The notes under the pieces: model-generated | The model's database searches: none | What the model was told of the DNA's origin: nothing | Seen by the model: the letters and a program-made list of their open reading frames with translations, nothing else | Position numbers and translations under genes: made by a program | Sequence record: ON470621.1 | Direction: 5' to 3' (one strand) | DNA length: 17,893 bases | Origin: Escherichia phage vB_EcoS-716R1 | In this document: positions 13,050-17,893 of the stretch, piece after piece | Position numbering within the stretch: position 1 is the first letter of the stretch | Layout: each line of letters begins with the position of its first letter

Positions 13050-13343
13050 ATGAAAAAAATGTTGTTTTCTGCCGCTCTGGCAATGCTTATTACAGGATGT
13101 GCTCAACAGACGTTTACTGTTGGAAACAAACCGACAGCAGTAACACCAAAGGAAACCATCACCCATCATTTCTTCGTTTCGGGAATTGGACAGGAGAAAA
13201 CTGTTGATGCAGCCAAAATTTGTGGCGGCGCAGAAAATGTTGTTAAAACAGAAACCCAGCAAACATTCGTAAATGGATTTCTCGGTTTTATTACTTTAGG
13301 CATTTATACTCCACTGGAAGCGCGTGTGTATTGCTCACAATAA
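13050..13343 (+). CDS. bor: Bor/Iss-family outer-membrane lipoprotein
   Basis: MKKMLFSAALAMLITGCAQQTFTV...ETITHHFFVSGIGQ...VDAAKICGGAENVVKTETQQTFVNG...IYTPLEARVYCSQ is a near-match to lambda Bor as I remember it, with an LITGC lipobox. Convergent with Rz, as in lambda. AGGA Shine-Dalgarno before the ATG. Confidence 0.9.
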   Translation: MKKMLFSAALAMLITGCAQQTFTVGNKPTAVTPKETITHHFFVSGIGQEKTVDAAKICGGAENVVKTETQQTFVNGFLGFITLGIYTPLEARVYCSQ

Positions 13344-15307: not shown

Positions 15308-15496
15308 TCACTCCGGCTCAGTTGCACCACTGACCACCACATCACCTTCTGCTGCAATCGCCTGCATCAGGGTATAAGGGGTTATGGCCACCGGACTACC
15401 AAACGGCTGCCAGCCCTCTTTCAGTTTATGTGTCAGCTTTTCCGCAAGATCTGACGGCGGCGCCGCCCTGACAACATCATAGTGTTTAAATGCCAT
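15308..15496 (-). CDS. Conserved lambdoid-prophage hypothetical protein (DUF1737-like) upstream of the holin
   Basis: 62-67 aa ORF (MAFKHYDVVRAAPPSDLAEKLTHKLKEGWQPFGSPVAITPYTLMQAIAAEGDVVVSGATEPE). The family assignment is from memory. The start is ambiguous between the ATG at 15511 and the ATG at 15496. Confidence 0.5.
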   Translation of the reverse strand: MAFKHYDVVRAAPPSDLAEKLTHKLKEGWQPFGSPVAITPYTLMQAIAAEGDVVVSGATEPE

Positions 15497-15756: not shown

Positions 15757-16092
15757 ATGAAGTGGATTGTAATTGATACAGTTATCCAGCCATCATGCGG
15801 AATATCTTTTTCAGTCATATGGAGTAAAGTAAAATTAATAATCTGGTATCAATCGGATGCTTTCTTACCTCCTGAAAGTATATTTACACTGACTCACACA
15901 GGTATCATGCTCAATAACAAAGTGCTACCTGTAACCATTTACAACGTAGTACCATTCAATAAAACATTCTGGAATTTAATCAAAAACAGCCAGGAATGCC
16001 CTACAAATACAGATAACGTATTGAATGAATGCTTTAATAACCGTTGCATTCTGCAAATATGTCCTTATGGACTAAAACAACAAAGTCCATAA
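15757..16092 (+). CDS. Hypothetical protein (111 aa) in a low-GC island, opposite strand to the late operon
   Basis: AAGGAAG Shine-Dalgarno 5 nt before the ATG. A 111-codon open frame in very AT-rich DNA is unlikely by chance because stop codons are AT-rich. Cys-containing C-terminus ([16 protein letters not shown]); no recognisable family. Confidence 0.45.
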
Positions 16093-16109: not shown

Positions 16110-16320
16110 GACAAAATCAATATAAACAGCCCCTCCGGAGAGGGGCTGGAGAGTGGCGCTATGTGCCATTGCATGGTGCCGGGTGCCTCCCGGTGAATTC
16201 AGTACCAGCACCTGAATCCGCGATTATCCCATATACCTACTCGCTGATTACCCCTCCGCACAGGGGGATTCACCATGCGAAATTTTTTAACAAACTTCCC
16301 GCCGGCCAGACAATAATCGC
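16110..16320 (-). repeat. Copy 1 of a ~200-bp structured repeat unit (candidate sRNA gene with promoter-like box and intrinsic terminator)
   Basis: Shares with copy 2 the blocks GCATGGTGAATCCCCCT, ATTCAG...CTGAAT stem, ACCGGGAGGC.CC.GGCACCATGC, and an identical hairpin AGCCCCTCTCCGGAGGGGCT followed by a T-rich run (minus sense). Upstream conserved TTGTCTGG...TTTGTTAAAAA box. Confidence 0.6.
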
Positions 16321-16584
16321 CAGCCTGAATTATGAGCAACGTGGCATTTTACGGGAAAACTGTTTTCTGCAGTAAAAAGGCCCGCCGGAGCGAGCCTGGA
16401 AGGATAGCGGTCATGTGATGCCGGTTTCCCGGTAACTCAGCATCGGTATCTGAGTCAACGTTTTCTCTACTGGGTCATTTCCGATACGTTCCGCCTTCCG
16501 GCAGACTTTCATCACGTCAGAAAATATAGCACCCTGAGTAACAGGACAGTACTCAGAATTCAGGAAACTGTGACACATCCTGCA

Positions 16585-16790
16585 CAGAAAAGCCCCTCCG
16601 GAGAGGGGCTGAAGTATAGCCTAATTTCTGTCTGTCGCATGGTGCCAGGGGCCTCCCGGTAAATTCAGCCTGTCTACTGAATTTGCATGTTCTCTGGATC
16701 ATACACTTTGCCAGATGCCCCGCCGCTGAGGGGGATTCACCATGCGATGTAATTTTTAACAAATTCTCCGGCAGCCAGACAATCATCAAG
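16585..16790 (-). repeat. Copy 2 of the same structured repeat unit
   Basis: Same conserved blocks and the identical 20-nt hairpin as copy 1. The internal region diverges with indels, while the ATTCAG/CTGAAT stem is kept with a different loop. Confidence 0.6.
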
Positions 16791-16967
16791 CTGTGGAATT
16801 GTGAGGTATTTAAAAATTTCAACGGGTAACTGATACCCTGCTAATCGCCTGATGCTTTCTTTTTCAGCAACGGGAAAGCAACAACCACACACCCGCCACC
16901 AAAACACCATCAGACAGCACCGACATTATCCGGCTGCTGAAGTCCACCATCACCACCAGAAACAACA

Positions 16968-17025
16968 GGAGTGCAACCACAGCTGCTTAGAAGGCAATTG
17001 CTCTGCCCGGCTGAGCTAACAACGC
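16968..17025 (-). other. Degenerate tRNA-Arg(UCU)-like remnant (D-arm and anticodon arm only)
   Basis: Minus sense TTAGCTCAGCCGGGCAGAGCAATTGCCTTCTAAGCAGC resembles the 5' half of an argU-type tRNA (GCTC/GAGC D-stem, CTTCTAA anticodon loop). No T-arm and no complementary acceptor 3' strand follow. Confidence 0.3.
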
Positions 17026-17125
17026 TGAATACCGATAATGGACCGCCATCGGGGACCCGCCCCCGCACCAACAACCCTGTTATCGTGTCGTCTGCTCTTC
17101 CTGATAAGCTAATGGCGGTTTGTGA

Positions 17126-17201
17126 TGGTGGCCCTTGCTGGATTTGAACCAGCGACCTGGCGATTATGAGTCGCTCGCTCTCACCACTGAGCTAAAGGGC
17201 C
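17126..17201 (-). tRNA. tRNA with CAU anticodon, most like the minor isoleucine tRNA (ileX/ileZ type)
   Basis: Minus sense GGCCCTTTAGCTCAGTGGTGAGAGCGAGCGACTCATAATCGCCAGGTCGCTGGTTCAAATCCAGCAAGGGCCACCA folds as a cloverleaf (7-bp acceptor GGCCCTT/AAGGGCC, GCTC/GAGC D-stem, GCTGG/CCAGC T-stem, encoded CCA). Overall similarity is to E. coli ileX rather than to a Met tRNA, judged from memory. Confidence 0.8.
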
Positions 17202-17237
17202 GGGAGTAGAATAATAACGGTCCGTAATTAATTCCGC

Positions 17238-17262
17238 AATAAAAAACCCGCTCGGCGGCGGG
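17238..17262 (-). terminator. tR'-like intrinsic terminator downstream of the late promoter
   Basis: Minus sense CCCGC-CGCCGA-GCGGG followed by TTTTTTATTG, about 50-70 nt downstream of the pR'-like promoter. Confidence 0.6.
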
Positions 17263-17311
17263 TTGTAGAAACTCTTCTAACGTCAGGCATAAAAAGCCCA
17301 TTATTATGACG

Positions 17312-17339
17312 AATTTACCACAGATTCCGGAAAAATCAA
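17312..17339 (-). promoter_or_regulatory. pR'-like late promoter (Q-dependent late transcription start region)
   Basis: Minus sense TTGATT, 16-nt spacer, TAAATT, immediately downstream of the Q stop codon. Lambda pR' has the same TAAATT -10 hexamer and the same placement. Confidence 0.6.
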
Positions 17340-17344
17340 CCTTG

Positions 17345-17893
17345 TTACCTAGTTACCTTTTTTAACTGCCGCTCAGCCCATGCTTCTTCAATATCAAACC
17401 GGGTCACCAGCGCATCATAGAATTTCTTAACTGTTTTTTCCCATGACGCGCGTGTTATCTGGTTTGTCACCTCGCATATAGCATTAAATGTCTCCGTTGA
17501 TGGTAGTCTTTCATAGCCACGACCACCACAACGCTGGCAGTCTCTGATAACAGGCATACCACGTTTTACCGACTCTTCACGATGAATGGCGACACCACGC
17601 CCACGGCAATCCTTACAGGCGGTGGAAACCTCACCCTTTCCGCCACACTCCGGACAGGCAACTTTTACCACCTCCCTGACTTTTTTCCATTCTTCCCAGT
17701 AAGACGAATACACACCTTTCGTACACTTTGCCCATACCGGCGGCTTACCATCCGGATACTGGACCTTGTTTGTAAAAACTACGCTTTCAATAAATTTTTC
17801 CCCATAGCAACAAGGGCACTGCTTTTTACTCGCTGCGCTGCGGGCATAATCCTCAAAAGCGTACGAATGCGTATTTTCATGAAAGGAGATCAC
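17345..17893 (-). CDS. Q: Late antiterminator Q (lambda Q family); 5' end beyond the window
   Basis: The C-terminal two thirds align with lambda Q (YAFEDYARSAAS, zinc-finger cysteines CPECGGKG...CKDCRGRG...CQRCGGRGYERLP, WEKTVKKFYDALV, ending KVTR). The ORF is open to the window edge at 17893, so the N-terminus is missing. Confidence 0.85.
   Translation of the reverse strand: MISFHENTHSYAFEDYARSAASKKQCPCCYGEKFIESVVFTNKVQYPDGKPPVWAKCTKGVYSSYWEEWKKVREVVKVACPECGGKGEVSTACKDCRGRGVAIHREESVKRGMPVIRDCQRCGGRGYERLPSTETFNAICEVTNQITRASWEKTVKKFYDALVTRFDIEEAWAERQLKKVTR

Follow-up and report, generated by a model that had tools for sequence, protein, structure and literature searches.

Gene content of the late region

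The window, by which we mean the whole 17.9-kb stretch of DNA that was analysed (17,893 nucleotides), is the late region of a lambdoid prophage, with the minus strand as its reading direction. Between the antiterminator gene Q and the lysis genes it carries a tRNA island that ends in half a tRNA gene, a remnant of the membrane-peptide gene tciB, and two copies of the small RNA STnc100 (Table 1). A prophage of E. coli M217 is colinear with the window (20 mismatches in 17,893 bases), and the induced-phage records vB_EcoS-733R4, -640R1 and -813R8 are identical to it across the tract and half-tRNA region described below. PGAP flags the HK97-family prohead protease of the M217 prophage as frameshifted, a change that would render that prophage defective.

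Table 1. Features of the late region and their positions in the window
Feature	Position	Strand	Basis or remark
Antiterminator Q	17893..17345	minus	
PR'-to-tR' short unit	17241-17326	minus	directly downstream of Q
Intrinsic terminator, tR' type	17264..17245	minus	AACCCGCCGCCGAGCGGGTT-TTTTAT
tRNA ileZ	17201..17126	minus	after tR'; first gene of the tRNA island
argN-like pseudo-tRNA	17039..17119	minus	alignment to argN of Stx2a_1447
argO 5' half	16984..17025	minus	41/42 identical to intact argO
Deletion junction	16983..16984		blastn against intact relatives
tciB (DUF3927) remnant	16864..16983	minus	Pfam, PHROG, DNA identity, PGAP
1-nt deletion site and old tciB C-terminal codons	16841..16890	minus	alignment, three-frame translation
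STnc100, two copies	16775..16582 and 16306..16118	minus	Rfam
Terminator-like hairpin	16378-16397	minus	AGGCTCGCTCCGGCGGGCCT-TTTTAC
IraM-like gene	15757-16092	plus	WP_001333560.1
Truncated DUF1737/esterase gene	15311-15496		annotated without C-terminus
iss	13050-13343	plus	adjoins lysis cassette
Prohead protease, HK97 family	7822-8420	minus	colinear position of the gene flagged in M217
Holin, lysozyme and structural genes			beyond the DUF1737/esterase gene in minus-strand order

The short unit that runs from PR' to tR' has weak, sub-threshold Rfam likenesses (isrK, 14 bits, E 1.7; Trp_leader, 20 bits), and by its position it would correspond to the short Q-regulated leader transcript of lambdoid phages (lambda 6S RNA, or the StxS RNA of Stx phages). 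The genuine elements of known sRNA families in the region are the two STnc100 copies, which score 138 and 132.5 bits against a Rfam gathering score of 47. About 470 bp separate the two, both of which end in a GC-rich hairpin, and the stop codon of the tciB remnant lies 89 nt before the start of the first. STnc100 has been related to the EPEC sRNA PasD, which is normally found upstream of a sialate esterase gene (preprint 10.64898/2026.05.13.724894). A further terminator-like hairpin lies between the two copies, outside both Rfam hits, and may mark the end of another short transcript. On the opposite strand within the moron slot of the late operon, between the second STnc100 copy and the truncated DUF1737/esterase gene, is a gene for an IraM-like anti-adapter of the RssB inhibitor family, and next to the lysis cassette stands iss (increased serum survival lipoprotein, Bor family), a known virulence-associated moron.

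A truncated tRNA gene at the end of the island

One of the three tRNAs of the island, ileZ, is left intact. It has a CAU anticodon and is of the tRNA-Ile2 type; ARAGORN labels it tRNA-Met(cat), its match to the Rfam tRNA model scores 72.5 bits, and PGAP annotates it as tRNA-Ile in identical genomes. The argN-like pseudo-tRNA that follows can still be aligned to its counterpart at the acceptor and D-arm ends, while its anticodon arm has been exchanged for other sequence and its T-loop lacks TTC; it receives no ARAGORN call and no Rfam tRNA match at E<=10. This decayed version of argN is common to phiP27, mEp460 and the prophage of O157:H7 F8797.

The third tRNA gene is represented by its 5' half. 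An earlier note, made by a model from the letters and a list of open reading frames, had seen a likeness to the 5' half of a tRNA-Arg(UCU) at this place, and a base-by-base comparison with the intact 77-nt argO of an O157:H7 prophage (L015) bears this out: the minus-strand sequence matches nucleotides 1-42 of the 77 with a single mismatch, whereupon the likeness stops abruptly and nothing similar follows. The half retains the 5' strand of the acceptor stem, the D arm, the anticodon stem-loop with the loop CTTCTAA and, on the 3' side of the anticodon stem, four of five nucleotides. Missing are the 3' 35 nt, which hold the fifth of these nucleotides and, beyond it, the variable loop, the T arm and the 3' side of the acceptor stem. 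What Rfam returns is a partial tRNA match (16982-17016, model positions 10-42 of 71) of 13.9 bits against a gathering score of 29, and ARAGORN, run across the window, finds ileZ only and calls no tRNA at the argO half.

The half thus agrees with the argO of the ileZ-argN-argO island in Stx and related lambdoid phages in 41 of 42 nucleotides, in its CTTCTAA loop and in its place after ileZ and the argN remnant, but unlike that gene it cannot form a cloverleaf. Alignment with the tRNA cluster of Stx phages accordingly gives a truncated argO behind the argN remnant, not an intact tRNA. The suggestion that a tRNA gene had here decayed or been disrupted stands in its second part and falls in its first, the gene having been truncated through a deletion and not worn down gradually.

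The deletion junction

In the prophages of E27 and O157:H7 F8797 the order of genes is ileZ, argN (or decayed argN), argO, a spacer of about 170 nt, tciA, tciB and, farther on, the esterase gene. Both flanks of the break are colinear with these relatives (loci L014 and L015), and 653-654 bp of the relatives are missing between them. By blastn, the right flank (16984-17202) aligns with the F8797 prophage at 98.2% identity without a gap and the left flank (16716-16983) with E27 at 89%; the break falls precisely between 16984 and 16983 in both comparisons, and megablast also places its boundary at 16984. The junction reads ...CTTCTAAGCA|GCTGTGGTTGC... on the minus strand, and no microhomology or repeat was found at it. 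What was taken away comprises the 3' 35 nt of argO, the spacer, the whole of tciA, and the start and first three codons of tciB.

The earlier note had offered, as a fallback, that the tract might be the scar of a recombination event, and the comparison with intact relatives gives this a definite form, a single deletion of 653-654 bp. This junction is present, at >=99% identity, in 285 of 5426 complete E. coli genomes (about 5%). The closest relatives of the two flanks differ (JLK-2012 and E27 at 89-95% on the left, F8797 at 98% on the right), so that no exact parent was identified and the reconstruction of the event draws on mosaic relatives.

A truncated and frameshifted copy of tciB

Beyond the junction, the CA-rich tract is occupied on the minus strand by an ORF of 38 aa with a GTG start (16980..16864; MVALLLFLVVMVDFSSRIMSVLSDGVLVAGVWLLLSRC), within a tciB-derived segment that spans codon 4 (GCT) to a premature TGA. 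The ORF matches Pfam DUF3927 (PF13064) with E 5.8e-11 and 42.6 bits against a cut-off of 25, over profile positions 11-39 of 53, and the 'TciB-like' PHROG 1470 with E 2.4e-13. In a 'distant' DNA search the remnant is 94.8% identical to tciB of phage JLK-2012. The feature is already known, being annotated in public records: the ORF is labelled 'TciB' in ON470619 and 'DUF3927 family protein' (WP_000226111.1) in RefSeq by PGAP. Aligned with the proteins of P1, JLK-2012, Evi, Actinobacillus phage pPE4 and E. coli D3, it shows the core motif DF[ST]S..(L/M)SVL[AS]DG..LV between two hydrophobic segments, with the invariant S, V, L, D, G, L and V all in place; its GRAVY is 1.79 and both hydrophobic segments are largely kept.

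As a reading frame for TciB, however, the copy is incomplete, with tciA and tciB codons 1-3 deleted and the C-terminal tail out of frame. An in-frame TAA, which derives from the anticodon loop of the tRNA, stands two codons upstream of the GTG, so that the native start cannot be replaced from upstream and the GTG is the sole start left there. The nearest Shine-Dalgarno match to this GTG is poor (AAGCAG) and merely 2 nt upstream. For identical sequence in two genomes PGAP chose different starts, giving 38 aa in one and 28 aa, from an internal ATG, in the other, and the start call is therefore arbitrary.

At the other end, the last 15 codons of tciB have been thrown out of frame by the loss of 1 nt at about 16888 (GGTGT-GTGG); the single-base gap is seen when the window is aligned with either JLK-2012 or mEp460. 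In a three-frame translation the codons of the original C-terminus (VVVAFPLLKKKASGD-stop) are intact and can be read in frame +2, which suggests that inactivation was recent. The other ORFs that overlap the tract (plus 16852-17019, 55 aa; minus 16910-17074; minus 16737-16910) have no Pfam match at E<=1.

TciB and its relatives

TciB (DUF3927) is a hydrophobic membrane peptide of about 50 aa and two helices, the partner of the TerB-family TciA. The gene stands directly behind a TerB-family tciA in JLK-2012, Evi, PPyecE_EH1910, an Actinobacillus phage and P1, and the two coding regions overlap by 1 base in P1 and by 4 bases in the others, an arrangement that suggests translational coupling. The P1 protein is 44-50% identical to the rest of the family and has the DF[ST]S..(L/M)SVL[AS]DG core in common with it. 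The name 'Tci' is given only 'by homology' in the GenBank notes of P1, and in a CRISPRi screen tciA, tciB and tciC of P1 were non-essential (PMC10695390). Complete tciA-tciB pairs are found in 790 of the 5426 complete E. coli genomes. A tblastn search of our phage collection with TciB gave no matches, probably as the low-complexity filter masks so hydrophobic a peptide.

Over 33 alignable codons, pS and pN are 0.467 and 0.082 between the tciB genes of JLK-2012 and Evi, and 0.255 and 0.042 between JLK-2012 and the window. Judged by these substitutions, the TciB family is truly protein-coding, with purifying selection acting on the protein; the pattern informs on the family and on the ancestor of the window copy, and not on the current function of that copy.

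A third layout, common in E. coli, has an intact argO followed by about 500 bp of unrelated, unannotated DNA and then a 43-aa variant of DUF3927, as in E. coli D3 (L007, 1186-1893) and mEp460 (L005, about 2125-2700). The variant has a different N-terminus (VIAYCFCEWHC...) and no tciA, and its Pfam score of 95.6 bits is above that of the complete JLK-2012 TciB. Recombination boundaries seem to recur in the middle of tciB. Set beside the TciB of P1 and lambdoid phages, the window copy is alike in its HMM match, its core motif and its late-region slot between the tRNA island and the STnc100/esterase module; it is unlike them in having no start, no first three codons and no upstream tciA, and its product, if there is one, would have 38 aa where theirs have 50-55.

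The source of the strand skew

The tract had been singled out in the earlier note for a plus strand made up largely of C and A over 16870-16990, and this description is accurate: the composition there is A44 C44 G21 T12, a C+A fraction of 0.727, and the two strings quoted as examples were located at 16880-16922 and 16944-16969. At all scales from 40 to 121 nt the C+A peak of the entire window sits in the tract. The 121-nt maximum (16863-16983) reaches 0.744, where the window mean is 0.528 with a standard deviation of 0.055 (z about 3.9), and 0.15% of 121-nt windows attain the value of 16870-16990.

This most skewed stretch coincides with the tciB-derived segment. Valine or leucine accounts for 18 of the 39 residues of the remnant peptide, T is at the second position in 23 of its 40 codons, and its sense strand is 0.75 G+T. 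The plus-strand excess of C+A arises because the coding strand is rich in G+T through its Val, Leu, Gly, Phe and Met codons, and the antisense of intact tciB genes is skewed too, with C+A of 0.62-0.67; the window copy exceeds these because the polar ends of the protein have been lost. The skew is beyond chance, yet it is fully accounted for by amino-acid content.

Comparison with phage-borne regulatory RNAs

CA-rich tracts in phage late regions bring to mind AgvB and AsxR, convergent primary transcripts of 51-60 nt encoded behind a moron CDS (PMC4104026), and the earlier note had proposed an Hfq-type sRNA or a sponge of the GcvB type. The proposal is not supported, the tract being the antisense of a DUF3927/TciB coding remnant in which the signals of an sRNA are absent. 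It does resemble AgvB and AsxR in broad location, all of them lying in the moron slot that follows Q and PR' (PMC4104026), and it recalls the CA-rich 5' end by which AgvB pairs with the GU-rich R1 seed of GcvB. AgvB and AsxR, however, own a conserved 3' module of about 42 nt with an intrinsic terminator, and this is absent from the tract and from the window. With the AgvB and AsxR sequences from the supplement of PMC4104026, a pattern search for the module with up to 3 mismatches gave 0 matches in the whole window, and blastn-short gave chance matches of 8-13 nt only. CACAACA, the GcvB-target motif of AgvB, does not occur in the tract. At gathering level, a Rfam scan of the window that included AgvB (RF02702) and AsxR (RF02703) returned only ileZ and STnc100, the latter twice. 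Identity with AgvB or AsxR was rejected on the agreement of pattern search, blastn-short and Rfam, all without a match.

Pairing energies were no more distinctive. The plus-strand tract pairs with R1 of MG1655 GcvB at -25.6 kcal/mol (RNAduplex), a value that 119 of 888 window segments also reach, as do 33% of shuffles that preserve the composition. Of 298 window segments none pairs better with the dppA leader than the sense tract, a result to be read by rank alone, as duplexfold with 120-nt partners inflates energies; 17% of its own shuffles do equally well, so the signal is one of composition and nothing more. Specific pairing was rejected for both, the match to GcvB R1 being unremarkable against window segments as well as shuffles and the match to dppA against shuffles.

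Nor is the tract bounded like a transcription unit. Scanned from 16300 to 17400, the region yields a single weak promoter-like site, on the plus strand (9/12 matches), where 1.1 are expected, and no terminator in or just past the tract on either strand; no promoter/terminator pair bounding it was found. The predicted folding of the two strands does not stand out from that of their shuffles (z -1.1 and -0.4). Hfq-CRAC and RIL-seq data have been published for other strains (PMC4104026; bioRxiv 10.64898/2026.05.13.724894).

Origin and status of the tract

We consider it very probable that the tract is simply the antisense of a truncated and frameshifted tciB fused to half of argO, an ordinary deletion scar of a prophage with no function of its own. 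The ancestral minus-strand order would have been Q, PR'/tR', ileZ, argN, argO, tciA, tciB, an RNA of the STnc100/PasD type and the sialate esterase gene. One illegitimate deletion of about 0.65 kb then fused nucleotide 42 of argO to codon 4 of tciB, destroying the tRNA and eliminating both tciA and the start codon of tciB, and a deletion of 1 nt, probably later, shifted the last 15 tciB codons out of frame. The comparisons establish the homology, the breakpoints, the frameshift, the source of the skew and the spread of the junction; beyond these we infer that the remnant is carried passively, transcribed only within the Q-dependent late transcript and without a function of its own. Hitch-hiking on a successful prophage would account for its presence in 285 of 5426 genomes, though neutrality is not proven by spread.

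Against this reading of the tract as a scar stands the fact that the 38-aa ORF (WP_000226111.1) is a PGAP CDS without a pseudogene flag. It might be alive, as a shortened DUF3927 mini-membrane protein whose translation starts at the GTG or at an internal ATG (codon 11) and which acts without TciA. Its score passes the Pfam gathering threshold (42.6 against 25 bits), it has kept the most conserved motif of the family (DFSSRIMSVLSDGVLV) and two hydrophobic segments, and the natural 43-aa variant of D3 and mEp460 has likewise had its N-terminus replaced and does without tciA. The window ORF, however, has lost the native start, which overlapped the tciA stop, neither candidate start has a usable Shine-Dalgarno sequence upstream, and PGAP is inconsistent between 38 and 28 aa on identical sequence; the conserved C-terminal [WF]P[LIV][LI]K and basic tail are out of frame, their codons still intact. 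We regard a live mini-protein as unlikely. More doubtful still is a bolder version, in which the deletion created a new chimeric unit of half tRNA and GU-rich stretch that acts during induction, as a TciA-independent peptide of 38 or 28 aa or as a GcvB-like pairing surface, and was spread by selection. Were it true, the transcript of the unit would start with an unprocessable half tRNA, and the roughly 5% of complete E. coli genomes that carry the junction would reflect selection and not hitch-hiking; we hold this to be quite improbable.

We give very little credence to the tract as an Hfq-dependent RNA, whether a CA-rich plus-strand sponge like AgvB or a GU-rich minus-strand seed that mimics GcvB. 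Anti-sRNAs are indeed known from phage late regions downstream of Q (PMC4104026), and the sense strand of the tract is the best dppA-leader partner among the 298 segments, but strong pairing is what composition alone predicts, and shuffles match the GcvB R1 and dppA pairings in 33% and 17% of cases. Neither CACAACA, nor the AgvB/AsxR 3' module, nor a gathering-level Rfam hit is present; the lone promoter-like site is at chance level, no terminator follows, the folds are unexceptional, and substitutions within the family show the pattern of codons rather than that of an RNA. A different origin for the half tRNA, as the attachment site of an integrase through which a mobile element was inserted in argO, has in our view next to no chance of being right. 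Integration at the anticodon or T loop of a tRNA gene is usual for many integrases, and the break does lie within the 3' strand of the anticodon stem. After site-specific integration, however, the tRNA has its 3' part restored from attP and the fragment left over is a second copy of that 3' part; what stands alone here is a 5' half. The flanks are moreover colinear with uninterrupted relatives, 653-654 bp are missing rather than inserted, and there is no repeat or microhomology at the junction; between Q and the lysis genes there is neither a matching argO 3' fragment nor an integrase gene. An origin through an integrase was rejected on the grounds that DNA was lost, not gained, between colinear flanks.

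Conclusions

Two practical points concern the reading of such regions. In RefSeq the remnant passes for an ordinary 'DUF3927 family protein', and its start codon varies among genomes. For scans that work from sequence only, the locus is a caution that a strong strand skew of the purine/pyrimidine type over about 100 nt can be the antisense of a gene for a Val/Leu-rich transmembrane peptide, and that tracts skewed in this way will always appear complementary to GU-rich sRNA seeds such as GcvB R1. The biological weight of the finding is small: it is a small example of the erosion that lambdoid prophages undergo in the moron slot between Q and the lysis genes, here through a single deletion that cut into a tRNA island and a TerB/TciB cassette and whose product spread with a common E. 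coli prophage.
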